This document shows positions 20,343 to 48,288 of a DNA stretch of 64,000 nucleotides, in pieces. Made by a program: the position numbers and the translations under genes. The stretch's first letter is position 1. Each line of letters begins with the position of its first letter. The notes under the pieces are model-generated. The model saw only the letters and a list, made by a program, of their open reading frames with translations, had not been told where the DNA came from and made no database searches. The stretch is from Synechococcus sp. (GTDB taxonomy: Bacteria; Cyanobacteriota; Cyanobacteriia; PCC-6307; Cyanobiaceae). The DNA lies in the NCBI GenBank assembly GCA_047285535.1, contig JBJBDC010000001.1:480136-544135 (forward strand). Reading direction: 5' to 3'.

Positions 20343-20406
20343 TTCAACGCATCTCTCCCGATCCAGCACTTTGCTCGATACGCTCAATACAGAATGAATC
20401 GATCTA

Positions 20407-28498: not shown

Positions 28499-29818
28499 TC
28501 ATGGCTAAGCCCAGTGTTGAACGGTACTTTTTTGTTGGGAATGGTCTCCACCACCTATTGCCTGCGGCCATCAAACAAGACAGATGGATTGAAGTCAGAG
28601 TTAGATTTGCGATCTACTCTTTCTGTGATTAATGTTGACAGTATTCCTGTAGATTTTCGAACTTTCTCGGGTTGATTTGCCTTATTTTCTTTGGATTGAC
28701 GGCTCCTCGGGTAACAGTTCAAAGGGTTTTATTTGTAATACATTTATTTTTTGGAGTGATTTTCGCTCCGGGATTTAAGTTTTTGCTATGTATTTTGTCC
28801 TTTGTTTTCGGCTTGGATCCTAGTCATTGTTTTGCGTTGTTGCGACGTTTTCCTCTTGTGGGATCGAAGTATTCGACTGCGTTTTGAGTCAATACGAATA
28901 AGGGTATGAACTGTTTCTGTCAAGCCTGCCAGTGTCTAGGTATAGTTGGAACTCAGTTGCCTATGACTTTTGTTGGCTCTCGTTTGTAGTATGAATGAGC
29001 TCATGATTTCTCTTGGGTCGATCTGTCGTCGATGAAATGAATCTGGCTATTATTTTTAATGCCTTGAGGGTGGCAGTAGTGATTCTCTGAAGGGGGCTAA
29101 TCGCTTTTTGAAGTGATTGTATGTATGAAGATTAAGTTGTCTCTTGGGAATATTGTTGATTGCTTCTGGGAAGTTGTGTTTCTCAGTTATGGTTCTTATA
29201 GGGAGGGTTTATGTAAATTGGTTTTGTGGGTTGAATGCTTAGCACGCCATTGCTTGTTGATGCTTTGTCGTCAAGAACTCCCATCACAGAAAAAAGTTCT
29301 TTTCTTTGAGTTTTGGTGATAGGCATTGATAGTGTTTGAGGATTAGCTTTTGAATCTATGGCTTTAGCGTTGAAGGTGATCGTGCTTGCTGGCGAATGCT
29401 TCATGTTTGGATTGTTGTGGATTCTATGTTTCTGGCGAACTTGGCTTGTTGTTTGCCGGTCAAGGAGGGGTAGATGGAATGAGGGAGTGAGATCTATTGG
29501 GCTTAGATTGTAAGCCTAATTTCAATTATTTGAAATTCATGGCGACTAAACTGTGGCTTGATTCTACCTTGTGAATGTTTCCATTTTGTGCAAGCTTTTG
29601 TTCGTGTCATTCATCTTATCTTGACTGTCTAAATAATTACTTCGCTAATCCATGTCAGGTTTTACCGGCCGCTTGGTCGGGCTTAATGAGTCCTCTCACC
29701 GCTAAGGTTTTTATCACAAAATCAGAACGGCTGGGTATTGCCTGCTGAGAATCATCTGCAGTTTTTCATTGTTCGACATTTTGTATTCAGACATGGCTTT
29801 CTTAGACATGCTGGCTAC

Positions 29819-30832
29819 ATGTCTTCTTTTAGCCTCCTTGAGCGTGCCAGTGCGGAATTGCTGAACTGGCTCCACGAAACAGCTCAAGTCCAATCGATTG
29901 AAAAAAACACTCCACTCCTAAGAGAGGCCGAGATCAATCAGAAGGTTGTTCTGCTGCTCAAAGGGCAGCTGATCCTCACTTCAACGATCTTGAAAAGAGA
30001 AGTCGATGTTCTGGGAGATCTGAGTATTGGTGACCTTGTTGGAGAGATGAGTTGGCTTGAACAGCAGCCTGCCTTTGCAACTACAACGGCAAAGACAGGT
30101 GCAATGGTTTTAGAGATACCGTTCAAAAGCTTGGATAGCCTTCAAAACAGCAACCCTGCAATCGCGGCCGAACTGAATCGGTTATTAGCTCAAAAACTTG
30201 CGCTTCAAATCCAAGAGCAAAATATCTGGGTGCATCGTCTCAAGGAAAACACACTCCCTGAAGCCCCCCTTCGGAATGTTCTCGTACTCTTTGCCAGCCT
30301 CAATGAACAAGACATTCAGTGTCTTGCTGAACTGGGACAAAGGCAGAAACTTCAACCAGGTGACTGCCTCCTTAAGCAAGGGAACGATGTGGATGCCTTG
30401 TATCTCGTTATGAGCGGGGATGCAGAGATTACCTTCACTCTCTCTGGTGACACTCAACTTGTTGGTAGTGCTTGTAGGGGAGAATTGCTGGGAGACATGG
30501 CCTTTCTCCTTGAGGACCAATCAGGTGCCTCAGCTGACGTTCGCTCGAGGGATGGAATGGATTTGCTGCGTCTTGATCGCAGAGGTTTACGTCAGGCACT
30601 CGACCAAGATCCATATCTTTCCTGTCGCTTCTACAGAGGTTTGGCGTGCATGTTGTCTCAACGCAGTCGACATCAACTTCTCAGCAGGCAGGTCAATACC
30701 GTCAGTCATGAATCTGAATTGTTCGACAATGATCGACTTGACACGATTCAATTGCGAGGAATTAGTCGAGCAGCGCGCCATTTTGATTGGCTTTGCCAGC
30801 ATTTCCAAACTGGGCATCAGGTGCGGTCATGA
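29819..30832 (+). CDS. Tandem cyclic-nucleotide-binding-domain protein (bacteriocin-type transport-associated)
   Basis: Two cNMP-type barrels (GDLVGEMSWL, GELLGDMAFL); first gene of the exporter operon; ATG at 29819. Confidence 0.85.
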   Translation: MSSFSLLERASAELLNWLHETAQVQSIEKNTPLLREAEINQKVVLLLKGQLILTSTILKREVDVLGDLSIGDLVGEMSWLEQQPAFATTTAKTGAMVLEIPFKSLDSLQNSNPAIAAELNRLLAQKLALQIQEQNIWVHRLKENTLPEAPLRNVLVLFASLNEQDIQCLAELGQRQKLQPGDCLLKQGNDVDALYLVMSGDAEITFTLSGDTQLVGSACRGELLGDMAFLLEDQSGASADVRSRDGMDLLRLDRRGLRQALDQDPYLSCRFYRGLACMLSQRSRHQLLSRQVNTVSHESELFDNDRLDTIQLRGISRAARHFDWLCQHFQTGHQVRS

Positions 30833-33558
30833 ACTGGAACGCAGGGACTGATGTTCTGTGGCCTTCGGTAGCCTTTCGGATCAAAAAAGGGGAAGTCTTA
30901 CTGGTCTCTAGAGGGAGTAGAGAGTTCGGACTTCTGCGACTGGAGCGAAACCTCGTTTACCCAGGTTTTCCCGATCAGGCTGGAGCACCTATCAGGCTTT
31001 ACCTTCGCGCCATCCAACCCAGTCGTCTGGCCTTGTTGAAGGTTGAAGATGACCTGCCTGGAAGACTCTGGCTCGATCGACATCTCAGTAGTGATCTTGC
31101 ATGCGATAGCTCAACCGAAGCCTTATCAGTCGAGCAGATCCTGCAGAAGCTTAATGCGTTGCATGCCCAAGCAGATGAACTCCACCAGATATTGCTGGAT
31201 GCTCACCGCCCTCTCAATGCTCGTCATGAAGCTCATCTCTTCTCAGAGATGGAGAGTGCTCCTGGTAGTAGTGAGATTCCATCCATACGGGCAAGATCCT
31301 CGTCCAACCAGTTGGCTCAAGACCCTCTCCTAAGCGGACTCACCCTGCTGTTTGGAAAAGACAAGCAACTGCTACCGCTTCCCCCGCATAAAACTGACCC
31401 TGATCCTAAAAAGCGTCTCAAGCAATTTCTCGATCGCACTGATCTCTTTGCCAGAGAAGTCGTTCTCGATCGGGCTGATCTCAACCAGGATTGTGGTGAC
31501 TTAATTGGTTTTGTCGATGATGACGAGAATGCAGTCGTCGTTCTGAAATCAACGTCTCAGGGCTATCTGGCCTGGCGACCTTGCCAAATGCCCCGACCTC
31601 TTCCGATTGAACAATGCTGGGGTTTGTTGGATGGTCTTTCCCCCAGGATGCTCTCCATCAGTCCAGCTTTCGGACCTGACGACCTCAGTACCTTCGGGCT
31701 ACTGCGCTTTGCCTACGGGAAACCCCAAAATACGTCGACGTTTGTGATCGGCGGGTTACTTGTTGGCATCATTTTTGGCTTTCTGCTTGCGATTGGACGA
31801 GAGGTGGGCGCTGCACGCTGGATCTTCGGCATGGGTTTTACCGGTCTGCTGACAGGAACCACTCTTGGGTTTCTCAGCGGTGGCTTTCGATTGGGCGTTG
31901 CCGTCATGCTTCTTTCAACACTTCTTGCGCTCTTAACTCCCACGTTCAACACCGTCATTACCAATCATGCACTCCCAGATCAAGACCTAGGGCTCCTGCT
32001 ACAAATCAGTTTGATTCTGGTCGTTGCGGGAGTCACCCGGGTCTGTTTTGAATGGATCCAAAGTCGGGCTGTTCAACTCAGTCAGCAGCGAGGTGCGGCC
32101 CGCTCTCAACTTGCTGGCATGCATCGATTGCTGCGCTTGCCAAGTGAGTTTTTTCGCCTACGCAATATCGGCGATCTCCAACTGCGTTTCGGAGCCCTCG
32201 ATCAATTACGTGGCGAAATTCAACAGCTGCTTGAGGGTGGTCTTCTAAGGCTGGTCCTCACCAGCATCTACATCCTTTTCATGCTGCGTATCAGCGTGAA
32301 GTTGACGGCATTAGCTCTCGTTGTTTCAGCTCTGATCCTGATACCTACAGCTCTCATCGGCTTGCAATCAAGGCCCCTGCAACGCCATCAAGAGGAGGCA
32401 GAAGCTCAAGCGCAGAGCCGAAATCTAGAACTGATCGGTTCCGTCTCCAAACTGCGTCTGGCCGGTTCCGAGAGTGCAGCTGCTCGTTGGTGGGGCGCAG
32501 AATTCCAAAAAATTGTCTCATTGGAAAATGCCCTTGATGCCAAAGAAGCCAGTGCTTCCCTCCTGAATGCTGTGATGCCCAATCTCGGCACCTTGTTGGT
32601 GTACGTGGTGGTGACTCGTCTGATTGCAGAAGCTGCTAGCACGTCAAGCCTGGACGCCCCCAATGTGGGTCAGTTGCTTGGATTCTTTTCTGCTTTCGGA
32701 ACCTTTATCGGTGCATCAGCAGGGTTTGCGGGTCTGCTCATCGGCGCTTTTGACATGCCGGTGATCTACGAGCGCGCCAGACCGATTCTCGAAACCAATC
32801 CTGAAACTACGGAATTTCGAGATGAAGCAGGCCTTTTGGAGGGTCGAATTCAGCTCGATCGTGTTCGCTATCGCTACTCCCAAGAACTGCCATTTGCGTT
32901 GGATGGGGTGAGCTTTGAAACTCATCCAGGAGAAATGCTCGCCATCGTCGGGCCATCTGGCTCCGGAAAATCGACAATTGTGCGCTTAATACTCGGTTTT
33001 GCTAATCCCGAAGATGGTGAGATCCGTTTCGATGGCCAACCCCTTAACGGCCTGCGACTGGACAGCGTGCGCCGCCAGATTGGGACAGTTCTCCAAACCA
33101 ACTCCCTGTTTGGCGGCACCCTGAAAGAAGCGATTGCTGGAGGTAGCCTGATCGAAGAGCAGGAGGCCTGGCACGCAGCAGAGCTTGCTGGTCTAGCAGA
33201 TGAAATTAGAGCCATGCCAATGGGACTCCAAACCGTAGTGAGTGACGGTGGAGGAACCCTTTCTGGTGGTCAACGACAACGCGTCGCCATCGCGAGAGCG
33301 CTGGTACGTCAGCCACGAATTCTGATCTTCGATGAAGCCACCAGCGCCCTGGACAATCGTACTCAGGCCATTGTTACTAAGAGCCTCGAATCATTGGCGA
33401 TCACTCGTCTCGTGATAGCTCATCGCCTCAGCACAGTCCGTCGTGCGGATCGAATTGTGGTGCTAAACGAAGGGCAGGTCCTTGAACAGGGCACCTGCGA
33501 CATGTTGATGCAACGCAAGGGCTTGTTCTTTCGAATGATGCAGCGCCAGATCACATGA
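30829..33558 (+). CDS. NHLM/Nif11-type peptide-export ABC transporter, permease/ATP-binding subunit without peptidase
   Basis: Transmembrane domain, GPSGSGKST, LSGGQRQR, IFDEATSALD, IAHRLST. ATG overlaps the upstream TGA. Confidence 0.9.
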   Translation: MNWNAGTDVLWPSVAFRIKKGEVLLVSRGSREFGLLRLERNLVYPGFPDQAGAPIRLYLRAIQPSRLALLKVEDDLPGRLWLDRHLSSDLACDSSTEALSVEQILQKLNALHAQADELHQILLDAHRPLNARHEAHLFSEMESAPGSSEIPSIRARSSSNQLAQDPLLSGLTLLFGKDKQLLPLPPHKTDPDPKKRLKQFLDRTDLFAREVVLDRADLNQDCGDLIGFVDDDENAVVVLKSTSQGYLAWRPCQMPRPLPIEQCWGLLDGLSPRMLSISPAFGPDDLSTFGLLRFAYGKPQNTSTFVIGGLLVGIIFGFLLAIGREVGAARWIFGMGFTGLLTGTTLGFLSGGFRLGVAVMLLSTLLALLTPTFNTVITNHALPDQDLGLLLQISLILVVAGVTRVCFEWIQSRAVQLSQQRGAARSQLAGMHRLLRLPSEFFRLRNIGDLQLRFGALDQLRGEIQQLLEGGLLRLVLTSIYILFMLRISVKLTALALVVSALILIPTALIGLQSRPLQRHQEEAEAQAQSRNLELIGSVSKLRLAGSESAAARWWGAEFQKIVSLENALDAKEASASLLNAVMPNLGTLLVYVVVTRLIAEAASTSSLDAPNVGQLLGFFSAFGTFIGASAGFAGLLIGAFDMPVIYERARPILETNPETTEFRDEAGLLEGRIQLDRVRYRYSQELPFALDGVSFETHPGEMLAIVGPSGSGKSTIVRLILGFANPEDGEIRFDGQPLNGLRLDSVRRQIGTVLQTNSLFGGTLKEAIAGGSLIEEQEAWHAAELAGLADEIRAMPMGLQTVVSDGGGTLSGGQRQRVAIARALVRQPRILIFDEATSALDNRTQAIVTKSLESLAITRLVIAHRLSTVRRADRIVVLNEGQVLEQGTCDMLMQRKGLFFRMMQRQIT

Positions 33559-34676
33559 GCCTCTTCCGTAAGAACGCGTTAGATCATCTCTCTAGTCCGG
33601 AGAAACTCGATCAACCTCTTCGCCTCCTTCGTCCCGGGCAATGGTTGCTATTGCTCTCCCTGGGTGGTTTCTGCATCACGATCACCATCTGGGCGGTGTT
33701 TGGACGTCTCCCGGTCCGTATCAGCGGCAAAGGATTATTGATCCGCTCCAATAGCCTGACGGTGGTGCAGAGCGAGGCCGCAGGACGGATCCTTGAGCTG
33801 AACTTCACCATCGGTGATTGCGTGAAGCGTGGGCAGCTGATGGCTCGTATCGATCCTGTTTCCCAGGAAATCAGCAAAAAGGAAGCGGAAATGCAGCTGG
33901 ATCATTTGATCAGCCAGGACCAGCAGGAAGATCACCTTGGAGCGATCCGTATTCGACAGCTACGAGCAGAAATTTCCCGGATCGCGAAGTTGACCCAATC
34001 CGGCGCGATCTCTATCGATCAATTGAGTCAGCGCCAGAAAGAATTAAGCGGTTTGGAGGACTCTCTTGAAGCTCGTGATGGTCAGCGTGAACAGCAGATC
34101 AAACAGCAGGAGGCACGCATCAATGCCCGCAACGAGGAGATCGAGCGTATCGCTCAGATCAGGGCGCCGATCGATGGCTGTGTCATCGATCGAAATGTGC
34201 ACCGGGGTGAGGTTGTCCAGCCTGGTAATACGTTGTTCACCTTAGAGACAGGTTCTGGACAGACCCCGCTAGAAAGCTTGGCTTTCTTTCAAGCTGGGGA
34301 CGGCAAACGGATCAGCATCGGGCAGAGGGTGCGCATCAGTCCCACCAGCACCAATCAGCAACGCCATGGCGGCATACAGGGCCAAGTGCTCAGCGTGAGG
34401 CGCTTGCCGGTGAGCGATAAGGCGCTGATAAAACGCCTTGGTCTGGAGTCTCTCTTAGATGCTGTGCGCAGTGAACAAAAGGGACCACTGATCGAGGTGA
34501 AGACCTCTCTAGAACGTGATCCAACGACCGTGAGCGGCTACGACTGGGGTGGAAGTGTAGGGCCTGACTTGACGCTCACTACCGGAACACCAACCAATGT
34601 GAGGGTATTAGTTGAGGAACGGCGACCGATCAGTTACGTCATCCCAATTATGAGAGACCTAACGGGCATCTACTGA
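33555..34676 (+). CDS. NHLM-type HlyD family secretion (membrane fusion) protein
   Basis: MSLFRKNALDHLSSPEKLDQ, one TM helix, coiled coil, IRAPIDG, RRPISYVIP. Confidence 0.9.
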   Translation: MSLFRKNALDHLSSPEKLDQPLRLLRPGQWLLLLSLGGFCITITIWAVFGRLPVRISGKGLLIRSNSLTVVQSEAAGRILELNFTIGDCVKRGQLMARIDPVSQEISKKEAEMQLDHLISQDQQEDHLGAIRIRQLRAEISRIAKLTQSGAISIDQLSQRQKELSGLEDSLEARDGQREQQIKQQEARINARNEEIERIAQIRAPIDGCVIDRNVHRGEVVQPGNTLFTLETGSGQTPLESLAFFQAGDGKRISIGQRVRISPTSTNQQRHGGIQGQVLSVRRLPVSDKALIKRLGLESLLDAVRSEQKGPLIEVKTSLERDPTTVSGYDWGGSVGPDLTLTTGTPTNVRVLVEERRPISYVIPIMRDLTGIY

Positions 34677-36823
34677 TGGAGCGAACTCCCACCGTTCTGC
34701 AAATGGAGGCCACCGAATGTGGAGCGGCCTCGCTCAGTATCATTCTTCAGCACTATGGTCGCTATGTCCCGCTTACTCAATTAAGGGAGCTTTGTGGTGT
34801 GTCGCGCGACGGCACGGATGCGGCCAATCTGATTCTGGCCGCACGCACATTTGGACTCGAGGCTAAGGGCTTCCAAAAAGGTCTATCGACCTTGGAAAAG
34901 ATGAAGGCCCCCGCCATCCTGTTTTGGGAGTTCAATCACTTTTTAGTCTTTGAAGGATTCAAAGATGACCGTGTCGCTCTTAATGATCCCGCACTAGGTC
35001 CGCGGACCGTGTCTCGAGAAGACTTCGATCGGAGCTATACAGGCATTGTTCTGACCATGGAACCTGGGCCCGAATTTGTTCGGGGTGGTCAGGCTCCATC
35101 CTTTTGGCCCATCGTGCGCCGACGGCTCACGAGTGAGCCGTCAGGTGTTCTTTTCTCCCTGATCGCTGGACTGCTGTTGATCCTTCCCCAACTGGTAATG
35201 CCCATTTATGCCCAGATCTATTTAGATGAGGTGATCGGTAACAGCATGAACCAATGGCTCAAGCCAATGCTTTGGGCTATGGCCTTAACCATCGGTTTAC
35301 AGGTTGTGCTGAAACATCTGCAACTGATCGGCACCAGGAGACTGGAAAAACGACTCACACGCCGTTTTTCGATTGGCTTTGAACACCAAATCCTGGCTTT
35401 GCCAGAAAGGTTTTACAGCCAGCGTCATGTTTCTGATATTGCAGGGCGGATGCAAATCAACGCCAACATCGCTGAATTCATAGGAGGGCGATTGATTCCA
35501 GTTGTCACTGGATTGGTTTTGCTGATCTTTTATTTGATATTGACTTTCCTCTACAGCCCATGGCTTGGATCCCTGATTCTTGGCAGTACAGCCATTAATG
35601 CGATAGCAGTACGGCTCAATCTGCGAGCGCAGAAGGATGCCAGCCTCACGATTCAAAAAGATGCAGCAAAAAGTAGTTCAGTGGTGGTCAATGCCATGCG
35701 GGACATCGAAACCATCAAGGCTGCCGCAATCGAGCAGGACGTTTTTCGTCGGTTTGCTGGCTATCAAAGCCGATTGCTGAACACGCTTCAAGATCTTCAG
35801 CTTCGTAATGCGAAGTTGCGGCTCATTCCGAATGCCCTCACCACTTTCAACGAAGTGACGGTTCTGCTGCTTGGCTTTTTGCTCGTGATTCGCGGTCAGC
35901 TGACTTTAGGCATGCTTCTTGCCGCCCAAACGATTGCCTTCAGCCTGAAAGGCCAACTTGAAAGTGTGATTGGTTTTGTCCAGCAGCTACCCGAATTTGA
36001 AGCAGGTGTTCTGCGATTAGAAGATGTTCTCGAGCAACCTCGTGACCCACTGTTGGAGAGTGATCCTGAGTTGATTCTCAACTCCAAACGTTCTCGGTTG
36101 AGCGGGGCTATTGAAATTCGTGACCTCAGCTTTGGCTTCGTAGCGATTCAACCACCGTTGATCAAAGACATTTCTCTATCCATTCAACCAGGCATGCGAA
36201 TCGCTCTTGTTGGTGGGAGTGGAAGCGGTAAAAGCACCCTGGCGAAATTGATTGCTGGCCTACACCAGCCCAGTGGGGGAGAGATTCTTTTCGATGATCA
36301 AACTCTTCTCACAATCCCAAGAGCCGTTGCGGTGAGTTCCCTTGCCATGGTTCAGCAAGAGATTCAACTCTTCGGATGCAGTGTTCGTGACAACCTTACC
36401 CTTTGGAACCAAGCAATTCAAGAAAGAGATTTGCTGGAAGCTTGCCGAGATGCGGAGATTCTTGATGTGGTTCGAGGACTTCCCGATGGACTCGACACTA
36501 TTCTTTCTGAAGGTGGACGGAACCTTTCAGGGGGGCAACGCCAAAGACTTGAGCTTGCTCGTGCGCTTGTAACCAATCCAAGCATTTTGATCATGGATGA
36601 GGCCACCGCTGCTTTAGATGCTGATACAGAGCAGCGCGTCATCAGCAATCTACGTATGAGGGGGTGCACTCAAATCATTGTTGCGCACCGGCTCAGTACG
36701 ATCAGAGATGCAGATCAGATCCTTGTGATGAAGCAAGGACAAATCATTCAACAAGGAACACACGAAGAATTATTTAATGATCAATCTGGTCCTTACGTTC
36801 AACTTTTAGAGGAGGTTGTCTGA
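34676..36823 (+). CDS. Peptidase C39-containing ABC transporter (PCAT), NHLM type
   Basis: TPTVLQMEATECGAASL (Cys), FNHFLV (His), LNDPA (Asp), GGSGSGKST, LSGGQRQR. Confidence 0.93.
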   Translation: MERTPTVLQMEATECGAASLSIILQHYGRYVPLTQLRELCGVSRDGTDAANLILAARTFGLEAKGFQKGLSTLEKMKAPAILFWEFNHFLVFEGFKDDRVALNDPALGPRTVSREDFDRSYTGIVLTMEPGPEFVRGGQAPSFWPIVRRRLTSEPSGVLFSLIAGLLLILPQLVMPIYAQIYLDEVIGNSMNQWLKPMLWAMALTIGLQVVLKHLQLIGTRRLEKRLTRRFSIGFEHQILALPERFYSQRHVSDIAGRMQINANIAEFIGGRLIPVVTGLVLLIFYLILTFLYSPWLGSLILGSTAINAIAVRLNLRAQKDASLTIQKDAAKSSSVVVNAMRDIETIKAAAIEQDVFRRFAGYQSRLLNTLQDLQLRNAKLRLIPNALTTFNEVTVLLLGFLLVIRGQLTLGMLLAAQTIAFSLKGQLESVIGFVQQLPEFEAGVLRLEDVLEQPRDPLLESDPELILNSKRSRLSGAIEIRDLSFGFVAIQPPLIKDISLSIQPGMRIALVGGSGSGKSTLAKLIAGLHQPSGGEILFDDQTLLTIPRAVAVSSLAMVQQEIQLFGCSVRDNLTLWNQAIQERDLLEACRDAEILDVVRGLPDGLDTILSEGGRNLSGGQRQRLELARALVTNPSILIMDEATAALDADTEQRVISNLRMRGCTQIIVAHRLSTIRDADQILVMKQGQIIQQGTHEELFNDQSGPYVQLLEEVV

Positions 36824-38350
36824 TGGTTTTCATTCAGCCTGTTCCTGCTGCATCGAATCTGGGAAAAACTATCCCCCAGAGCCCTGCCTAAGGATCCAGG
36901 CGAATCTGCTCAGCATCTTGACGATTGTCTCTTTGTTACTGCCAAGTGTCTGATTGACTCATCAACTTCCGCCTCCACCGTTGAGTCTTTCCTTGATCGT
37001 CTCGCTGATGATTCTCATCCTCACTTTGAGGGTGATGTAGTTGAAGAACATACCTGTGCTTGCTGACCCAATCTCTACGTACATCGATCAATCGTCTTGG
37101 GCTGTTCAGTGTCGTAGGACTCTTCAGCTGGTCATTGTTGTTTCTTCCTTCTGAACTGGGTTGTGGAAAACCATCACAAAAATTGTCCAAGACTTCTTCA
37201 GTTTGGTGGTTGCAACGGCAATCACCCTGATTGTGATTGACCGAGATTTCAAGGTTGATTTAGCTGGACTTGCTGCGACCTCAACATTCATCACCGAGGT
37301 TGTCGCTCTTTCTGTCCAAAAAACACTCAAACCTCTCTCTGCCGCTGTTTCTCTTCCGGTTGACTCCTCTTTTGATCAGGGCGGCTGAATCGACTTAGCC
37401 TTCACCCGTGGCATAGGCATTCCTCTGCGTCGGATGTCGAGCGCTGACGCACCAGCGAGGTCTACATCACCGTCTTGCCAATGAGATATATCTCCTTCGA
37501 AGGCCTCCGCCGAACTAAGTCATCAGAGCCTTGCGTCTGATCTTCGAGATCGGATGGACTGCAGCCTGCTCAGTTCCAAGCCATCGAGCTCCTCAAACGC
37601 GCTGATGAACAACAGAAAGGTGTACATGGTTCCGGCTTCAATGCTTTGGCTCAGAAACTTTGAAGACATCACTCTTGTCTAAAAAATCCGCACCTGGTAG
37701 GCCTGGCCATGGAGCAGCACCAACGGTGCACTGATCTGATCGAGCCAATCTAATACTGCCTTCAACGTATCAACTCAGTGAATACCTTTGCCCATCCCCG
37801 ACTTTCAAGTAAAGGCCTCAACAGCAAAGTTTCTATCGAAAACGTTAAATCGGCAGTGCCTTCAATCCTTTTTAGTTCAAGTCAAACTTTTTAGTCAGTT
37901 CACACCGATCAGCTCCTTCAACACGCTAAGCCAGCTTGCCGCAAAAGTTACGATCCTGGTCAGCGTGTTATAAGCCAAGCTGAATAAGGCAACAGTCTTT
38001 TGATCGTCATGGGCGCAAGCCTCGATGTCATGCGCAATACACCCCAAGGAGGACTTGTTCTGGTGAACACTCTGACGTGGGCTGCTGTCTTGGGTGAAAT
38101 GGTTTTATGCAAGGGTGCACCGGGATCAGCCAATGCAATTTGGAACGTGAAGTGTGTTCTGCTCGACATTCAACGACTACATCTGATCCAACAGATAGAG
38201 GAGAACCCTCAGAATCTTGAGACGATGGGCACTCTTATGGCTCATCGTCGGCAAACTTTGCAATCGATTAGCGAAGAGAGGGCTGAAACTCGAATCCAGA
38301 CACTCATCGGCTGCATTCAGTCTCTCCAGACAAGCATGGGGCAATCATGA
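36823..38350 (+). pseudogene. MscS mechanosensitive channel fused to a cNMP-binding domain (bCNG-like), pseudogene
   Basis: Fragment VDLAGLAATSTFITEVVALSVQKTLKPLSAAVSLPVDSSFDQGG*IDL (MscS TM2-TM3, PF..GDWI region) and C-terminal LGEMVLCKGAPGSANA (cNMP). ATG at 36823 overlaps the PCAT stop; the final TGA overlaps the cyclase ATG. Confidence 0.85.
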
Positions 38351-40233: not shown

Positions 40234-40804
40234 TTACATCTTCAAGTCCAAAGAGGAGTTTGATTTTGGAAAGTGGGACTTTCGAATCGCAGGTTAGTAG
40301 CAATTCCTTAAGTTGATCTTGAACTGCAGAATCAATGAGACGCGACTCATCGACAAGCAGACTCTTGGCTGGTGGACTCTCCACACCGATAAAACCAAAT
40401 TCGTCACCAGCTTGTGATTCAGCACACCTATAGGCTGATTCCCAGACTATTGGAAATAGTTGAGTCTGGAGAAGTCGCAACAGCACAAGTCGGGGACCTG
40501 AAGAGACAATGGACCGCATGAAAACAGGTTTGTTCCGCTTGAGAAGCGAAATTTCAATTGGTTTGGGATCTCTAGACGGCCCTTCGAGCCAACCAATCAC
40601 GCCTTCTTTCCCTGGCGCAAACACACTCGACTCTGGAACCAGGTGAACGATTAGACGCGAAACGCATTCTCCTCGCGTTCCTCCGCCAACCCTTCTGCCA
40701 GGAAAGCTATTACGAGACTGGGACCAGCTCTGCTCAGGGTGAATGCCTGTTCCCAGAACCATTAAGGCTGCAGACGTCACAATGGAGCGAATGGGCGAGA
40801 TCAC
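40190..40804 (-). CDS. DUF928-like exported protein
   Basis: Signal-peptide-like N-terminus then FPGRRVGGGTRGEC, typical of DUF928; lies between CHAT and CHASE2 genes. Confidence 0.7.
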   Translation of the reverse strand: MISPIRSIVTSAALMVLGTGIHPEQSWSQSRNSFPGRRVGGGTRGECVSRLIVHLVPESSVFAPGKEGVIGWLEGPSRDPKPIEISLLKRNKPVFMRSIVSSGPRLVLLRLLQTQLFPIVWESAYRCAESQAGDEFGFIGVESPPAKSLLVDESRLIDSAVQDQLKELLLTCDSKVPLSKIKLLFGLEDVINSQWPQEVPVMCF

Positions 40805-40878
40805 GGCAGGATTTCGACTCTATGGCTGCAGAATGCCCCGATCTTTAGCAATTGGCCTTGATTTCGGTCATTTTCAAA

Positions 40879-40894
40879 TGTGATTCAGATCACA
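40879..40894. promoter_or_regulatory. CRP binding site
   Basis: aaaTGTGAttcagaTCACAa, a perfect TGTGA-N6-TCACA, intergenic, ~75 bp upstream of the DUF928-like gene. Confidence 0.8.
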
Positions 40895-40910
40895 AGCGGC
40901 ATAAAGACAA

Positions 40911-43900
40911 TCACCAGGGAGAACCAAGTAATTCAATTCCAGCCCAGAAAAAGGGATTCTTCACACCTCTTTTGATGCGCTGACGTTGAGACTGATCAAG
41001 ATCTTGAAGTAAAGGCTCTCCACCATGTCCAATGACCTCATCACCTTGGAGATAAACAGATCCCAGAGCAAAGATCTGACGCGTGCGTAGTAAAGCTTCT
41101 GCCTTGGAAGCCCCTTCGGCAAGAAAGCGATAAAACTGAACAAAGAAAGCCGATGTCACGACATCATCGACGTACCAAAGTGTGCCAATTGCACTTTGGG
41201 AGCCTGCCTGTAGAGCTAAACCTGCGAATCCCAACTCACTCTCTTGATCTCCAAGCATGGTGCGACAGGCACTGAGGACCACGAGATCAAGGGGATGATT
41301 ACGACGTTGTCGACGTAGTTCCGCAAAATCGGCCATCGACATCGGTCCCTGCCCTGTGTGTAAAACAGATTTTGTTCGACCACCTGGTCGAAAATCGGCA
41401 TGGGTGGCGATGTGGACGCGGGAATAACGCGGATCACTGGCACGATCGAGCAAGGTTTGCGGTGTGAACGCGTCGTCTAGATATCGATCGGTGCTGGAGG
41501 TGTCCTGAATCTTGTTGAGCTCCTGCGGAACCAGGGGAAGAGGGGCCATTGTCTCAAATTCAGAAGCACCCATGGCAAGAAGTCCTTGGGAGCCATTCGA
41601 AGCACTGAGGTCGGTTAGCGCCAAAGAAGGAGAGAGGGCGAAACCATAACGTTCTCCGAAATATTGAGCGCCATCATTTAAAGCTGAGAATGGTACGGCT
41701 TGGAGACCCTGATCGGCTGCAATCAAAAGGGTTGTGATGTCATGTGTGTCCAAACTTGATTGAACCGGAGCAATCAGAAGATCATGCAATTGCCGAGACG
41801 GCGACATAGGGTCGTTGACCTCCAGTGATTCTTGACGGGACAACTGTCGATAGAGATCTTTCAGAAGTTCAGCAAAGCGTGCTCTTGAGATCTCAACACG
41901 CTTGGCCTGAACGACACCTTCAGGAGGAACGAAGGTGAGATCCAGAAATCCCGTTTGAGCATCGGTAAAACGCACCTGCAACACAGCTGGGACCAGGGCT
42001 TTTCTTCCTGGCTGTTGCTGTTGCACTTCACGTAGCGATTGCTGAATCTGCGACACTGATGGAGTTTCCGGAGCAATGCCATTGAGGCTTTCCTCCAGGT
42101 CAAGGGCTGCCACCGTGCGAAGGGTTGCCTGACCATCTGATTCCTGTAGTTGCAGCGCTGCCTGATCTTCTGGGAGTTTCAGCGGAACAGAAGCCCTAGA
42201 CCCCGTTGGGTTCTGAGTTTGGGGGGACACAGCAAGCATCCCACTCGTTTCACCAAAATTGACCACGACGGGAATGGAGTTGTTGGAGGATTCAACACCG
42301 ACAACCTGACCATTGGGCAGGGTAGAACTCTGATCAATAAGAGGGGCTTGGCTTTGGTTCTGCTGGATAGTTTGGAGAAGGGCTACCTCTGCCGATGGAT
42401 CGAATCCAATCAATCGCTGCGAACGATCGTCATCTTGACGGGTCACATCTGAATCCATTTCAGGGGGCGATTCTTTTGTGGGTATTGGTTCAGGTGTGGG
42501 TGTTGGTGTTGAACTACAAAGATTGGATGATCCACCTCCCGAACAAGTTGCAGAAGTAGGCGATGACGACAGCACATCGAGAGAACCCTTTTTTACAAAC
42601 GTCTCACCGGTGTAGGTAATGGTTGCAGATGGGGAGAATTGGAGGGTTCCATCACCTTCTTTGATGAAGTCGCCATTCCCAGAGATGGCAGCATCCCAGG
42701 TGAGAGTTGAGGCTGATCCCCTTACATCGATTGCTCCCCCACCAGAATTCAGCAGGAGTTCAATGTTGTTGACTGCTTCAGTGGCATCACGACGCAATGT
42801 TGCTCCATTAAGAATGATTTGTGGATTGGAGGCACCGCCTATAACTTCAGCTCCACTTGCTTGGTCGAACCAAATGATGCTATCCCCGGTCGCGATGAGA
42901 CGTTGAACGAAGAGCGTCTCTTGAAATCTTGCTGTACCTGGGCCGTTATGAAGTAAATCTCCGAACATGATGGTGCTTTGTCCATCACGAAGATTGATCG
43001 GTCGAGTGAAAAATACATCACCGGAACCTTCCAATGACAAGTCCGAATTAAACGCTGTAGAGGCTGCTAAGACCGATACAGAATTACCAGTCGTCGGATT
43101 GAGATTGAGCTCACCTTGTGTCATGTCAACAGTTGAACTGCCGTTCAGCGTCAACGTTTGCTTCAGTGAATTGTTCCCGGACCAGTTGCGTAGAACGCCA
43201 CCCTCCAACACCACAGGCTCGTCCAAAGTGATGTCGCCACTCAGCTCCAAAGTGGCTCCAGCTTTAACTGTTGTGGGAATGTTGCTTGCTCCTAAAGCGT
43301 TGGAATTGGTCACACGTAGTGCTCCTGATTCGACCGTGACCTCACCAGACCAGCCGGCATTATTCCCCGACATAATCAAACGTCCATGTCCTGATTTGGT
43401 GAGATCACCACTTCCTGATAGCGTCGATGCCAACGCCTGAGAGCCATAAGTAGGTGTTCCGATCTTGGAGTCACCAGTGGAAACATGGAGTGGGCCGTTC
43501 AGGATTAATTGGCTACCGGACGCTCCCTCTACAAAGCCGGCTCCAGCATTAAGATTCAGCCCTCCGCTACCCGTAGTGATATCAGAGCTGAGTTGGATAT
43601 ACCCTGATGCATCAAGCGTAAGCACGGTTGTTGCTGTGGAGTAATTGAGATCGGCACCCGATGCCCAAGTGATGTTGCCGCCTTGTGTGGGATCTCCATT
43701 TCCCGTAAGAACGCGAACATTATTTCCATCATCCACAAGTGATTGTTTCAACGCTTGCTCATCAACCGTTGATGCGCTGACTGTCGAAGTAAACAGCACA
43801 TTGCTATTGCTACTGCCACTTGGATCAGCAGTGATTGTTCCCGTGACGTTGCTGATCGTGATATTAAATGGATCCAATAACCACTCACCTGCCAGCCCAC

Positions 43901-44924
43901 CTACCGAGCTGACATCCACCCGCTCAGGATTGGCAATGAGCATTGCTCCAGAGGTTTCAACCCGCCCACCATCACCCCCTAGCGGCCCACCCATCGCAAG
44001 GAATGTGCCTTCTGCGACTGTGCCGCCAGACGCGTGATCCAGATCACTCCAGATCACAATTGTGCCGCCATTCCCTTGTCCGGTCGAGGAGGCATTCACC
44101 AAGGAACCAGGCTGCATCCACGTTTGCAAGGCCTGACGCACCGTTTGGTCACTGTTTTGCCAGCTTCCGCCAATGAGGACCTCCCCACCATTCTCCCGAC
44201 CCGTGGCCAACAGCCGGGTCTCGGCACCTACCTTGATCAGATCCGCAGACAGTGCAATCGAACCTCCATCACCGAAGTCATTGCTTGCGGATAACTGACT
44301 GGCTTTGATGTCGATGCGCCCTTCCGGTGCATCGATCAGTAAACTCTCCTCCACATCAAGATCAATACCCTCCATACGAATCCAGGGTCGATCGTCTCCA
44401 TTTCGAGAGCCATGGAGTCCAAGACTTCCAGAGAGTGGATCACTATCCAAGGAAGAAAGGCCAGCCTGATGTGTCTTGAATACATCGAAAACCCCACCGG
44501 GGAAATGAAGTTCACTAGCCGTGCTTAAGGTCAGTTGAGGAATTTGCAGAAACCTGGCACCGGGCATCATCTGAATGCCACCCGGTGAAAGCACAAATAA
44601 ATGGGACGGTGCAGTGAGTGAAATTGCTTTGTCAATGAAACTGCCCTCAGCAGCGGTGACACCCAACACAAGATTCTGAATGCCATCGCTCTGAATCTCT
44701 ACACCACGAATAGCTCCGCGGGTGTCGAAGTGACTCAGCCGGTGAAAGCGATTACGTCCTGAATCAATTCCGCCATCAAGATGGCATACCCCGGTCTTGC
44801 AACTCCCCCCCATGACCCCATTAACTCGGGTCTGAAGCCCTGGCCCTGCCTTCACCTCAGCACGAACATTGCCGGCCTGGATCGACGCCAACAACAAAAG
44901 CAATGGCAGTCGTAGCCTTTTCAT
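40911..44924 (-). CDS. TpsA-like filamentous haemagglutinin protein with C-terminal CHAT (caspase-like) protease
   Basis: Signal peptide, TPS-like domain (NRFHRLSHF, LFVLSPGGI), Gly-rich beta-helix repeats, GEWLLDP, passenger-type repeats (LTKSGHGRL, FIKEGDGTL), TPTPTPEP linker, CHAT motifs HIATHA, VVLSAC, GTLWYVDD, NPFFWAG. Confidence 0.9.
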   Translation of the reverse strand: MKRLRLPLLLLLASIQAGNVRAEVKAGPGLQTRVNGVMGGSCKTGVCHLDGGIDSGRNRFHRLSHFDTRGAIRGVEIQSDGIQNLVLGVTAAEGSFIDKAISLTAPSHLFVLSPGGIQMMPGARFLQIPQLTLSTASELHFPGGVFDVFKTHQAGLSSLDSDPLSGSLGLHGSRNGDDRPWIRMEGIDLDVEESLLIDAPEGRIDIKASQLSASNDFGDGGSIALSADLIKVGAETRLLATGRENGGEVLIGGSWQNSDQTVRQALQTWMQPGSLVNASSTGQGNGGTIVIWSDLDHASGGTVAEGTFLAMGGPLGGDGGRVETSGAMLIANPERVDVSSVGGLAGEWLLDPFNITISNVTGTITADPSGSSNSNVLFTSTVSASTVDEQALKQSLVDDGNNVRVLTGNGDPTQGGNITWASGADLNYSTATTVLTLDASGYIQLSSDITTGSGGLNLNAGAGFVEGASGSQLILNGPLHVSTGDSKIGTPTYGSQALASTLSGSGDLTKSGHGRLIMSGNNAGWSGEVTVESGALRVTNSNALGASNIPTTVKAGATLELSGDITLDEPVVLEGGVLRNWSGNNSLKQTLTLNGSSTVDMTQGELNLNPTTGNSVSVLAASTAFNSDLSLEGSGDVFFTRPINLRDGQSTIMFGDLLHNGPGTARFQETLFVQRLIATGDSIIWFDQASGAEVIGGASNPQIILNGATLRRDATEAVNNIELLLNSGGGAIDVRGSASTLTWDAAISGNGDFIKEGDGTLQFSPSATITYTGETFVKKGSLDVLSSSPTSATCSGGGSSNLCSSTPTPTPEPIPTKESPPEMDSDVTRQDDDRSQRLIGFDPSAEVALLQTIQQNQSQAPLIDQSSTLPNGQVVGVESSNNSIPVVVNFGETSGMLAVSPQTQNPTGSRASVPLKLPEDQAALQLQESDGQATLRTVAALDLEESLNGIAPETPSVSQIQQSLREVQQQQPGRKALVPAVLQVRFTDAQTGFLDLTFVPPEGVVQAKRVEISRARFAELLKDLYRQLSRQESLEVNDPMSPSRQLHDLLIAPVQSSLDTHDITTLLIAADQGLQAVPFSALNDGAQYFGERYGFALSPSLALTDLSASNGSQGLLAMGASEFETMAPLPLVPQELNKIQDTSSTDRYLDDAFTPQTLLDRASDPRYSRVHIATHADFRPGGRTKSVLHTGQGPMSMADFAELRRQRRNHPLDLVVLSACRTMLGDQESELGFAGLALQAGSQSAIGTLWYVDDVVTSAFFVQFYRFLAEGASKAEALLRTRQIFALGSVYLQGDEVIGHGGEPLLQDLDQSQRQRIKRGVKNPFFWAGIELLGSPW

Positions 44925-45035
44925 TAAGGCACCAAATCAAACATAGGAGATGCATTTCAAATAAACAGCACTTAACCCTAGGCATGCTTCTCCAGACTTA
45001 CTAATCTTCGCGTGCATTAATCGTTCCACGCCTTC

Positions 45036-46712
45036 ATGCTGCTGCTTTTGGCGCAGTTGGTTGCTCCGCCACTGCAGCCCGGTCCCGTTCGTATCCCGGA
45101 ACCAGTTCCAAAAGAGCAGTTTCCGTCTCCTCCTGTTGACCAGGTTCCTCTTGATCCAGAATCACTTCAGTTGCCTCTCAAAGCCCAGCCTTCAAAACAA
45201 AAGGGGGGACCGACAGCTCCTTGGCGACCAACGATCGAAGGATCCGCTCCCTACAGCTCCGATGAACTTTCAGATATTCTCAGCATCTGTTCTAAGAGCA
45301 GTTCAGCCCTCCGTCTGCAGAGCTGCGCTGAAGCGATCACAGCACGTTTACAACTTGACGGCTACGTCAACTCACGGGTTTTTGTGGAGGAGGAACCGTC
45401 CCCTGGTCGTCTTGTGGTGGTGACGGGTCGATTGGTTGAACTCCAGGTCGAGGCGAGCACTCCTTCTCTAGAACAACGTGTTCGAGCAGCTCTGTCCAAC
45501 CTTATTCAGGAGCCATTACAACTTCCAGTACTGCAATCACGACTTCGCCAACTCAAACAGCAGAATGTGGTAGGCAGCATTTCCGGAACTCTGGGGAAGT
45601 TGGGAAGCGATCCCACTCAAGGTGTGCTTCGTATCACTGTCACCGCACCGATGCATCCATGGCGGGGCGATCTCAGTTTGCGTAATGATGGCAATGCTGG
45701 GAGTGGTGAATGGCGAGCCATAACGATTTTGCAAAAACAGAATATTTTTACCGATGGTGATCTGTTGCAACTTTATGGAGAAGGGAATGTGGATAGTGAC
45801 CCTGAATTTGGTGCAGCTATTGGCTCGCTCAGCTATACCTTTCCTCTTGCCAGCAATGTCAACTTCACTGGTTCGTTTGGAGCCAGTCGCCGCAATTTTG
45901 TAGAAGTCAGTGGACTGGCCCATGGCTTGAGCTTTCGTCAATACCAAGGGCTAGGCCAACTTCAATGGACCTTTGCAGAAAATGTTCACCACTCTTGCTA
46001 CGCCTTTGCGGGACTCAGCTCGAATCACAAAAATAGCTATCTCAATGATCAATCCTTTCCTCTGATCATTGGTGGCGGTCTTGATGGTGATCTCACAACC
46101 GGCTATCTACGCTTCGGGCTCGGTAATGCAGGACGATATGGCTCTTGGTCGTGGTCTGGACAGGTTTATGGTCTCCAGGGCCTTGCCGGTTTCAGCACAT
46201 CCGATGAGTTAAGCAATTTGGCCTTTTTTGGTGTGAATCCAGGCGAGTCAAGGGCTCTCGGCGGAATCATGACAAATGGATGGTCCCTAAGCAGAACCCT
46301 TCAACTCTCCTTGAGGGTTGCTGGACAGATTTCCTTCAATGAACTCACTAATGATATGGGTTTTTCCCTGGGCAGTGATACAGGACTCCGTGGTTTACCG
46401 GGGTCGTTGATCAGCGGAGACGATGGCTGGCTCGCAAATACTGAATTCAGCTGGACCTTTTGGCAAAAGGATCAGAACGCCTTGCAATTAGTGCCTTTTT
46501 TGGGCATCGGAGGCATCTCTACTCGAAGGGACGACATCACCATTTCGGACACGATCGGTTCAGGAGGAATGTTGCTCCGATGGCTCAATGGACAACATTG
46601 GAATGTTGAGCTCGGCTGGATAGACCAGTTCAATGCAGAAAACAACATTGGCGTATGGAACGACTGGATTCTCGGCAGCGGGCTTTATGGGAAGGTGAGT
46701 TTTCGTTTCTAA
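45036..46712 (+). CDS. ShlB/FhaC/HecB (TpsB) outer-membrane transporter
   Basis: POTRA-like GYVNSRVFV, barrel motif GLRGLP...SGDDG, terminal Phe (VSFRF); divergent from the TpsA gene. Confidence 0.88.
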   Translation: MLLLLAQLVAPPLQPGPVRIPEPVPKEQFPSPPVDQVPLDPESLQLPLKAQPSKQKGGPTAPWRPTIEGSAPYSSDELSDILSICSKSSSALRLQSCAEAITARLQLDGYVNSRVFVEEEPSPGRLVVVTGRLVELQVEASTPSLEQRVRAALSNLIQEPLQLPVLQSRLRQLKQQNVVGSISGTLGKLGSDPTQGVLRITVTAPMHPWRGDLSLRNDGNAGSGEWRAITILQKQNIFTDGDLLQLYGEGNVDSDPEFGAAIGSLSYTFPLASNVNFTGSFGASRRNFVEVSGLAHGLSFRQYQGLGQLQWTFAENVHHSCYAFAGLSSNHKNSYLNDQSFPLIIGGGLDGDLTTGYLRFGLGNAGRYGSWSWSGQVYGLQGLAGFSTSDELSNLAFFGVNPGESRALGGIMTNGWSLSRTLQLSLRVAGQISFNELTNDMGFSLGSDTGLRGLPGSLISGDDGWLANTEFSWTFWQKDQNALQLVPFLGIGGISTRRDDITISDTIGSGGMLLRWLNGQHWNVELGWIDQFNAENNIGVWNDWILGSGLYGKVSFRF

Positions 46713-46735
46713 CCTCTGTTTCGCAAGAAGATTGT

Positions 46736-47428
46736 TTAGTCGAGCAGTCCACGCTTCTGGAGCGGCTGTAGATCCACAATGCGCAAACCACCATTTTCTT
46801 CGACAATGACCTTTCTCTGGCGAAGCTTGCTAAGGGTGCGGGACGCCGTTTCCCGTGCAAGACCAGCCAGTAATGCGAGCTCTCTCTGAGCAAGGGAGGG
46901 AATCAAAGCCTGAGGGTCACTTGCTGGACCGGAACTTTTCTTGGCGAGATAGGCCAAAGCATCCAGAAGACGGGATGTGGCATCACCACTCTGAAGAGCG
47001 AATCTTCGATTGAGATCACGTAAACGCTCAGCCTCTAAGCGAGCAAGCCTTAGTGCAAATCCAGCTTGTTTATTTAGAAGCGCAGCAAAGGGTGCCACCC
47101 GAAGCTTGACCAATTTCAATGATGTCAGCGCGACCACATCAGCTGAACGTGCCGAGCCATCGAGGGCTGCCATCTCTCCAAAAAGATCCCCCTCTCCGAG
47201 CAACGACATCACGATCTCTTCACCATCAGCGGTGTAGGTACGCACCTTAGCCAGGCCGGACCGCAATAAAAACAAAGATTCGCCCCAGTCCTGTTCCATC
47301 ACAATCACCTGATCGGGATGATGACCAGTTTCACGATGCCGATCAAGAATCTGATCCAGCTGATCATTCGTAAGGTCCTCGAATAAGGTCATGGACTGAA
47401 GTTCATCGCGCATTGCAGGAGATGTCAT
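46736..47428 (-). CDS. crp: Crp/Fnr family regulator, cAMP receptor protein type
   Basis: Intact phosphate-binding cassette FGEMAALDGSARSADV; HTH QRELALLAGLARETASRTL with the RExxxR recognition helix. Confidence 0.85.
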   Translation of the reverse strand: MTSPAMRDELQSMTLFEDLTNDQLDQILDRHRETGHHPDQVIVMEQDWGESLFLLRSGLAKVRTYTADGEEIVMSLLGEGDLFGEMAALDGSARSADVVALTSLKLVKLRVAPFAALLNKQAGFALRLARLEAERLRDLNRRFALQSGDATSRLLDALAYLAKKSSGPASDPQALIPSLAQRELALLAGLARETASRTLSKLRQRKVIVEENGGLRIVDLQPLQKRGLLD

Positions 47429-48288
47429 AAATTAAACAAAACAAGATGCCCCATTCAGATCAACTTGTTGAGGGGTTGCAACATTTAATCCAAAAGGAGA
47501 GAAGAACGCAAACACCCTTCACCCTTTGATCGTTCTTGCACAATCGATTCCCTTACCCCAGTCAAGCTAACAGACATGATCAAAGCCCCTTCTAATCCAT
47601 GATTGGATGAATCATCGTTCAAATAACATCACCACTCCAAATAGCCTTTCTTTTAACGCATCCTTCATTTCGCCCTTGCATTCGTTCAGGACAGAAAAGG
47701 TTCTGACGCCAGAGCCATTGAAAATTGAACCAGACAGCGTTATCTTGAAAATTGGATAATACGAGTTATTGTAAGTTGTGAGATGCGAACACGAATTAGA
47801 ATCTTATCTGTACGACCTATAATGCTAATCATGATGGTATTTGTGAAAACTTTATCTGGATCTTCTGCATGGAAAAAAATAAGTTCAAAATTAGATCTGA
47901 AAAGATAGCCTCAACACCGTGATCCGCTCACTATGAATCCTCATTGTCGATCCTTTAGGGATCTGTAAGTAGCGACGAGGGGATCGCCTCCCCCGATCTA
48001 TGCTTCTTTCGTTTGCAATCTCTGTTATCGCTGAAGAGCTATGTGATTTATTGCCAGTCCATTTAATTATTCCTAGTTCTTATTTATTGGTCTTTGCTGT
48101 TTTGAGGCGAAAGTATCAAGTACTAGTTCTAAAGTTTCATAGTTGTACGAAATCTTTCTGCTCAACCGCGCAGAGGTGCAAATTTCAATTCTCTTAAAGC
48201 TGGGAATCAAGATGATTGGTTCCTGGGAGATGCGTATCAACCGAAGAAATGGCAATCTGCTGAAACTGTTCCTTATCGCGATCAGACC

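Follow-up and report, generated by a model that had tools for sequence, protein, structure and literature searches.

A candidate envelope-to-cAMP circuit built on a CHASE2 cyclase, an exported DUF928-like protein, a CHAT protease and Crp lies beside an optional peptide exporter in Synechococcus

We analyzed a stretch of 64,000 nucleotides, referred to here as the window, from the closed 3.03 Mb genome of Synechococcus sp. (GenBank assembly GCA_047285535.1, contig JBJBDC010000001.1; G000:C1:480136-544135, where G000 is the source genome, other G-numbers are relative genomes and L-numbers are fetched regions). The gene block at positions 29819-47428 is made of two separable units side by side and is not one six-gene operon. 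Unit 1 (38347-47428) encodes a CHASE2 adenylate cyclase, X928 (our label for the product of the gene at 40190-40804 on the minus strand), a TpsA-CHAT protein, TpsB and Crp, and unit 2 (29819-36823) encodes an NHLM/Nif11-type exporter of a known kind. The best overall explanation, to which we give a probability of about 0.58, is an envelope-to-cyclic AMP (cAMP) circuit beside an optional exporter. The features of unit 1 are as follows (TPS, two-partner secretion).

38347-40233, plus strand: CHASE2/transmembrane/class III cyclase, 628 amino acids, with Lys468 at the purine-selecting site (adenylate type) and Ala544 at the second site (Pfam, motifs)
40190-40804, minus strand: X928, exported remote DUF928 homologue, 204 amino acids, four invariant Cys (profile comparison, models)
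40879-40894, no strand assigned: CRP box TGTGA-N6-TCACA (motif match; position kept in 17 of 18 same-order loci)
40911-44924, minus strand: TpsA-like passenger, 1337 amino acids, with a divergent TPS-like N-terminus, a PATR repeat and a C-terminal CHAT domain with a His/Cys dyad (Pfam, pairwise alignment)
45036-46712, plus strand: TpsB, POTRA plus ShlB/FhaC barrel (Pfam)
46736-47428, minus strand: Crp-family regulator with GE/RSA nucleotide-binding and RETxSR DNA-reading motifs (Pfam, motifs)

Complex prediction with CHASE2 residues 25-303 and X928 residues 28-204 gave an ipSAE of 0.62 (runs 0.43, 0.62 and 0.63), and the best of three controls reached 0.00; this mark is attained by 116 of 157 solved and 2 of 215 mismatched pairs, a calibration that is only rough with author-made alignments. 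The runs agreed in at least 50% of contacts, with a partner pLDDT of at least 74. The confident interface places X928 residues 30-37 against CHASE2 residues 123-124, 142, 144, 155, 158-161, 187, 194 and 206-211. Within it, R31, F34 and P35 of X928 are invariant in 68 X928 rows, and on the CHASE2 side D142 and Q211 are invariant and L155, V158, Q161, W194, D206 and G209 are at least 90% conserved in 83 cyclase rows. Judged by eye, about two residues separate the likely signal-peptide cut from the start of the docking peptide. Sequence search found no solved relative of either CHASE2 or X928, which makes it less likely that the model was recalling a similar solved complex. The predicted contact suggests that the N-terminal RNxFPGR peptide of X928 probably occupies a conserved CHASE2 pocket, which would make X928 the receptor's own tethered ligand.

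X928 belongs to the DUF928 proteins only at a distance. The Pfam DUF928 model (PF06051) matched 0 of 20 X928 orthologues at E<=1, a Pfam scan of X928 returned no match, and no Pfam label was attached to the best 120 of its 995 database matches. Profile alignment (hhalign) of X928 with four true DUF928 proteins gave a probability of 93.7 and an E value of 1.9e-7 over 151 columns. The motif PGRRxxxGxR is common to both, and the true DUF928 proteins keep it as PGRRxxAGxR (4 of 4). In X928 an invariant segment, RNxFPGRRxGGGTRGEC, follows the signal-like N-terminus. The structural model (pLDDT 78.5) comprises a disordered N-terminus, an FN3/Ig-like sandwich and a helical tail, with low confidence at the Arg/Gly-rich residues 36-47. 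A Foldseek search with an X928 model found no match at E<=0.001. Wide fold searches of X928 models reached best Z scores of 4.7 and 7.1, in both cases to generic FN3/Ig or macroglobulin sandwiches; the better match (Z 7.1, root-mean-square deviation 3.2, 99 residues aligned) is itself generic. These searches revealed no specific structural relative, and MtxA, discussed below, is absent among the best 50 rows of either. No function for DUF928 is on record; one DUF928 paper notes a CHASE2-DUF928-WD40 cluster in one Nostoc.

The metal-binding and transition-state motifs of the cyclase are intact: D428, D472, N551, R555 and K468 are invariant or at least 90% conserved in the 83 cyclase rows, and the Lys/Ala pair at the purine-selecting sites is kept in 21 of 21 homologues. 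The closest solved cyclase domain is that of Synechocystis Cya2 (Sll0646; PDB 2W01; E 2.6e-32), which shares the CHASE2-transmembrane-cyclase layout and in our alignment carries Gly at the second purine-selecting site. According to PMC5995499, Cya2 has Glu488 and makes cGMP, and its E488K variant is an active adenylate cyclase. The window cyclase family differs from Cya2 in having Lys at the Glu488 position, as in that engineered variant, and cAMP is therefore the likely product.

The CHAT domain of the passenger matches PF12770 (E 5e-51), and its His/Cys dyad is present in 21 of 21 homologues. The Pfam TPS domain (PF05860) found no match at the TpsA N-terminus, which aligns weakly with a true TPS domain in pairwise comparison (E 2e-5). 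TpsB scores above the cut-off for PF03865 and weakly for POTRA_2 (E 0.0086). Passenger length ranges from 636 to 2215 amino acids while CHAT stays conserved, and in TpsA the domain follows a long linker of low complexity. Some two-partner passengers keep their C-terminal parts in the periplasm, and in G170 a split CHAT protein, 54% identical to the fused domain, has a signal-like N-terminus; we therefore infer that CHAT works in the periplasm. According to PMC11506125, separases cut after Arg and craspase sites vary. Two observations concern the relatives. CHAT is a separate gene of 430-500 amino acids, not fused to a passenger, in many of them (about 20 of the listed CHAT matches; for example L103:10773-12053, and in L099/L100). 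In G101, a perfect CRP core (L101:3197-3212) precedes a gene for a calpain-family (Peptidase_C2) plus PPC protein (L101:3302-5209) beside the TpsA-CHAT gene.

The CRP core at 40879-40894 falls between tpsA and X928, 17 bases beyond the stop of the first and 75 bases upstream of the start of the second. The window holds two TGTGA-N6-TCACA cores, compared with 0.23 expected by shuffling (5 of 100 shuffles reach two), and the genome holds 22; the second perfect core in the window, at 20802-20817, falls inside a long open reading frame (ORF) at 20398-21096 and is probably due to chance. The site at 40879-40894 is also the only exact match in the genome to an extended pattern (one of five matched places), a pattern that was chosen after seeing the site. 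Of 18 same-order loci, all but G025 have a CRP box 17-35 bases beyond the end of tpsA; 12 of these 17 boxes are perfect and 5 have one mismatch. In G101, which represents another genus and another gene order, a perfect consensus lies 77 bases before a DUF3307-X928 gene pair. The meaning of the GE/RSA and RETxSR motifs of the regulator is taken from E. coli CRP, and the window crp is the only match in the genome to the Crp of G006 at E<=1e-6. In this lineage, the conserved site makes it very probable that cAMP-Crp drives X928 transcription. A second recurring CRP box lies upstream of a gene for 550-1100 amino acids (cluster c28) next to thiO, which is likely a further Crp target (L098:6949-6964, from G000; L050:3931; L055:8435; L048:10261; L051:9462; L069:9416).

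Comparative analysis covered 39 genomes of the genus and 221 genomes of the family, with overlaps counted by hand from tables. Within the family, 67 genomes carry a cyclase orthologue and 68 carry X928, namely the same 67 and G103. In 65 of the 67 pairs the two genes share a contig and are no more than 7 kb apart; in the other two pairs they are on separate contigs. A CHAT domain occurs in 65 of 67 cyclase genomes versus 25 of 154 others. Cyclase and X928 are thus always together and nearly always with a CHAT gene. The exporter is found in 19 family genomes and is missing in 53 of the 67 cyclase genomes; in the genus, 9 genomes have the exporter and 18 the cyclase. No CHAT match was obtained in 6 of 21 exporter genomes. 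The core unit is tight and old, and the exporter is a frequent but optional neighbour. Outside the family, 6 of 20 regions were annotated. In G058, from another family, a cyclase, a true Pfam DUF928 gene, a TPS-CHAT gene, tpsB and a second DUF928 gene stand in a row; G043 has a cyclase and a TPS-CHAT gene, and G046 a cyclase, two DUF928 genes and tpsB. The ORFs scanned in G060, G051 and G053 included none of the core parts.

These results bear on an earlier note, made from the window alone, which had read the whole block as one candidate undescribed system. Its description of a CHASE2 adenylate cyclase with intact catalytic motifs agrees with the retained metal and transition-state residues and with Lys at the purine site; its TpsA-CHAT protease with a TpsB partner is borne out by the intact dyad and by the barrel next to the passenger; and its perfect CRP box is real. 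The linkage it saw among cyclase, X928, CHAT, TpsB and Crp extends across family genomes, where these genes travel together, and the CHASE2-DUF928 complex prediction that it suggested does return a contact. The term "DUF928-like" holds for X928 as remote homology by profile alignment and fails as Pfam membership. The two halves of the block, which it expected to co-occur, do recur side by side in several gene orders (see below), so the lack of co-occurrence that it named as refuting is not seen, yet most cyclase genomes lack the exporter.

The exporter and the joint between the two units contain the following features (cNMP, cyclic nucleotide-binding).

29819-30832, plus strand: tandem cNMP-fold protein of NHLM exporters (TIGR03896); neither domain has the phosphate-binding Arg (profile match, alignment)
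30829-33558, plus strand: NHLM-type ABC permease/ATPase without peptidase, TIGR03797-like, below cut-off (Pfam/NCBIfam)
33555-34676, plus strand: NHLM HlyD-type membrane fusion protein, TIGR03794 (NCBIfam)
34676-36823, plus strand: C39 peptidase-ABC exporter, TIGR03796, with Cys, His and Asp motifs present (Pfam/NCBIfam, motifs)
36826-36895, plus strand, limits approximate: decayed 3' tail of speA, deletion scar (DNA alignment with relatives)
36900-38350, plus strand: MscS-cNMP channel pseudogene with its start codon lost, at least two frame changes and in-frame stops (alignment; intact at about 490 amino acids in relatives)

The tandem cNMP protein scores 270 bits with TIGR03896 (cut-off 161), the HlyD protein 238.6 bits with TIGR03794 (cut-off 156.2) and the C39-ABC protein 1010.9 bits with TIGR03796 (cut-off 853.3); TIGR03797 is the best family for the remaining ABC protein, at 592.8 bits and under its 709.4 cut-off. 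The phosphate-binding Arg is absent from both cNMP domains of the tandem protein in 9 of 9 orthologues, as judged by alignment to PKA for domain 2 and by eye for domain 1. Eleven PF07862 (Nif11) matches occur in the source genome, none less than 20 kb from the exporter, and Nif11 leaders are present in 21 of 21 exporter genomes, a comparison without a control set. One Nif11-like match in the window (6559-6687, plus strand; E 1.5e-6) lies 23 kb from the exporter; its frame ends soon after the leader-like part and has no Gly-Gly core.

A second NHLM-type exporter, scoring below cut-offs, lies at about 1.818-1.835 Mb of G000:C1 (L096:6594-19144 and L097:1141-4972). Its neighbours include a YcaO cyclodehydratase, a SagB dehydrogenase and a PoyD-type radical SAM epimerase, all above cut-off, and an 801-amino-acid LanM-like gene below cut-off that covers model positions 2-620 of 932. 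By its gene content, this region (about 1.82 Mb) appears to be a proteusin/TOMM-like peptide cluster in a marine picocyanobacterium, and the second exporter could be an alternative outlet for the Nif11 precursors of the source genome.

Exporter and cyclase are joined in the window by a scar. The five stop/start overlaps that led the earlier note to a six-gene coupled operon exist as letters. Nevertheless, all three frames of the stretch 36823-38350 are interrupted by many stops, the frame opened by the ATG at 36823 lasts only 22 codons, and the stretch matches the intact MscS-cNMP genes of relatives in three successive frames. DNA alignment with G006, G025 and G028 places the decayed speA tail (about 36826-36895) directly after the exporter stop and shows that the true mscS start codon was lost in a 9-base gap near 36900. 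The fifth "gene" of the proposed operon is therefore this speA tail followed by a start-less, frameshifted mscS-cNMP remnant, and what seemed to place the cyclase in the exporter operon is a deletion scar; in G028, G015 and G027 the exporter and the cyclase are separated by further genes, including ndk and speA. The rest of that gene list (exporter genes, cyclase, TpsA-CHAT, TpsB and Crp) is confirmed by Pfam/NCBIfam, and all three kinds of cNMP protein it named are present, though the tandem protein lacks the phosphate-binding Arg. Transcript read-through from exporter to cyclase would be possible. A promoter/terminator scan was uninformative (13 and 17 sites versus 16.8 and 19.5 expected).

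The block sits between recG and ddpX-sir. In all 5 relatives checked, recG and ddpX are direct neighbours, so the block represents an insertion in the source genome. It is flanked by A+T-richer segments (window 28500-29800, about 1.3 kb, and 47430-48280, about 0.85 kb) that contain nearly no ORFs of at least 80 amino acids. The usual same-genus order is gatB, thiO, [exporter in G028, G015 and G027], ndk, speA, mscS-cNMP, cyclase, X928, tpsA, tpsB, crp, alaS. G000 still has ndk and speA at 2.04 Mb, where the module itself is missing; a degraded crp fragment located between speA and a DUF3307 gene (L098:11499-11836, minus strand; G000:C1 about 2.0445-2.0448 Mb) apparently marks the module's old site. 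Because the native site keeps ndk, speA and this fragment and the window holds the junction scar, the window block reads as a second-site copy minus redundant genes. The block thus appears to have moved from the gatB-ndk-speA-alaS region to the recG-ddpX gap, with loss of redundant genes joining the exporter to the speA tail and destroying mscS-cNMP. The 5' end of the native crp remnant is more similar to the G006 crp than is the window copy, and the window cyclase has its closest counterparts in G006/G012 (76%). The route may have been a move within the genome or re-acquisition from a close relative. In relatives, the gatB-ndk-speA-alaS region (L031-L070) is a hot spot of cNMP-domain genes, with genes for a cNMP-methyltransferase, a cNMP-MGS protein, a small cNMP protein, two MscS-cNMP types and pfk, and with further CHASE2 cyclases that have FecR-like neighbours.

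Control of the exporter by CRP, a second proposal of the earlier note, was rejected. A CRP-like site (at most one mismatch) lies directly upstream of the exporter in only 1 of 16 loci, that of G085, where it is 54 bases before the gene and has one mismatch; a site in G014, 670 bases upstream, is nearer a divergent gene, and a site in G114 lies inside the gene. The conserved box precedes X928, and the tandem cNMP protein, the 53 cyclase genomes without an exporter and the 6 exporter genomes without a CHAT match likewise speak against a cAMP-Crp drive of export. Because the box is conserved at X928 and nearly absent at the exporter, and the Arg is missing in the cNMP protein, Crp seems to be aimed at the sensor's partner and not at export.

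Taken together, these results suggest a signaling circuit in which TpsB would export the TpsA filament while the C-terminal CHAT domain stays periplasmic. X928 would be exported, with its invariant RNxFPGR peptide predicted to sit in the periplasmic CHASE2 pocket. A cue at the filament would turn the protease on, and CHAT would then cut the flexible Arg/Gly linker GRRxGGGTRG between docking peptide and X928 body, changing cyclase output. cAMP-Crp would in turn transcribe X928, a feedback on the sensor's own partner. The NHLM exporter would be an optional neighbour that exports Nif11-leader peptides encoded elsewhere. The sequence from filament cue through linker cleavage to changed cyclase output is possible, with the odds somewhat against it. 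For X928, we slightly favour an inhibitory plug, destroyed and then remade as a resetting negative feedback, over an activating ligand. In its fullest form the circuit would be a counterpart of a protease-activated receptor: a filament-borne periplasmic caspase-fold protease would cut a DUF928 pro-ligand, the tethered peptide freed or removed from the CHASE2 pocket would switch cAMP, Crp would resupply the ligand and, where an exporter is nearby, the signal would be timed to Nif11-leader peptide secretion. We regard this complete version as speculative and somewhat unlikely.

Several observations weigh against the envelope-to-cAMP reading. The CHASE2-X928 contact is a prediction by model score, with only 8 partner residues in the confident interface and one run at 0.43. 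The second purine-selecting site of the cyclase is Ala544, not Asp, Thr or Ser, in 21 of 21 orthologues. Even with one mismatch allowed, X928 has no CRP box ahead of it in G025, in any of the four second-order copies within the genus or in any of the 20 loci from other genera, so the Crp feedback on X928 would be lineage-specific. Moreover, the cyclase occurs in 14 of 19 exporter genomes versus 53 of 202 others (kin are not independent), and the exporter lies at most 10 kb from it in 8 of the 14 genomes with both, including the 1.9 Mb genome G101 (2 are far apart and 4 on separate contigs). This linkage takes five gene orders in four genera (G000/G028/G015/G027; G005/G066; G085; G101; G170) and suggests that the exporter is nearer the cyclase than a pure passenger would be.

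The same linkage argues for one integrated system, in which CHAT/CHASE2-derived cAMP switches on Nif11-leader peptide export through Crp, read-through or the cNMP-fold protein. Such a system would also account for the class III cyclase of some kind that 13 of 22 exporter genomes, among them G000, carry at most 15 kb from the exporter, for the regular presence of Nif11 leaders and for the site before the G085 exporter. However, 5 of 19 exporter genomes have no cyclase orthologue, the two genes are far apart in G032, G159 and G229, and the missing exporters and CHAT matches, the scarce CRP-like sites and the lost Arg described above all count against it, as does the nature of the joint here. Many of the linked cases lie in a common gatB-thiO-ndk-speA region and may go back to a single inheritance; kinship and the shared hot spot can explain part of the linkage. 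We therefore consider full integration quite unlikely.

Another explanation keeps the CHASE2 contact and dispenses with the cut: X928 would be an adaptor reporting the state of filament or translocon, CHAT would act on TpsA in adhesin maturation or release, and cAMP-Crp would tune adhesion. Protease-released two-partner adhesins are known (CdrA/LapG), TpsA has its long linker before CHAT, and the X928 sandwich with its four invariant Cys takes no part in the predicted interface, so that it could engage another partner. This reading is unlikely in our judgment. The invariant stretch continues past the docking peptide through the low-confidence Arg/Gly segment, which we infer suits a cut site better than a spacer, and the passengers vary widely in length while CHAT is conserved. 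That the block is merely a relocated island in decay, with no working circuit, is very improbable. The destroyed mscS-cNMP gene and the decayed native crp copy would fit decay, but the nine remaining reading frames are intact and retain their catalytic residues, the window crp is the only such gene by the search given above, and the CRP site is unique in the genome by its post hoc pattern.

CHASE2 is a widespread sensor domain for which we found no described direct ligand, and the predicted contact offers a testable answer to what it detects. The protease-activated-receptor reading, if true, would provide both a CHASE2 ligand and a function for DUF928. The circuit, if true, would give Crp and cAMP a role in abundant marine picocyanobacteria (67 of 221 genomes sampled) and would add a periplasmic CHAT protease to envelope signaling. 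The surprising part is the combination of the CHASE2-X928 peptide contact, the Crp feedback and the neighbouring protease. We regard the export arm as doubtful; the link to the exporter has less support, and its chief value is as a clue to the timing of Nif11-leader peptide secretion.

In a literature search confined to openly available papers without their supplements, neither the core module nor a peptide ligand of CHASE2 was found described, and we found no paper covering both CHASE2 and two-partner secretion and none joining CHAT, CHASE2 and DUF928. Parts of the locus resemble known systems. The exporter half has counterparts of all three genes of the NHLM/N11P exporter (TIGR03794/03796/03797; PMC2887384, Haft et al.), the TIGR03797-like one below its cut-off, plus the TIGR03896 partner; unit 2 has no precursor or maturase alongside, and the accessible part of that paper mentions no link to cyclases or CHAT. 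In Myxococcus xanthus, the periplasmic CHAT protease of DdvA-DdvS is likewise proposed to start a trans-envelope signal by proteolysis, but there a TPR-CHAT protein acts on an anti-sigma factor with an ECF sigma output, and the available part of PMC11506125 describes no cyclase, filament or separate ligand protein. The MtxA operon of magnetotactic bacteria similarly encodes an exported FN3/Ig-like protein beside a CHASE2 adenylate cyclase; MtxA differs in its TPR domain, and the accessible text of PMC4439547 mentions no binding, CHAT or Crp loop. As proposed, the circuit would work like the Sinorhizobium (S.) meliloti pathway of NsrA, the cyclases CyaD1, CyaD2 and CyaK, and Clr (PMC13001267), in which CHASE2 cyclases, a Crp-family reader, an upstream outer-membrane beta-barrel and a protein signal recur. 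That signal is a plant protein, and the part of the source available names no direct CHASE2 ligand and mentions no protease, two-partner filament or DUF928 protein. As in S. meliloti, a CHASE2 cyclase, a Crp-family regulator and a CRP-box target are present here; the outer-membrane barrel scores as ShlB/TpsB, and the place of NsrA would be taken by a two-partner filament together with a protease and a dedicated ligand protein.

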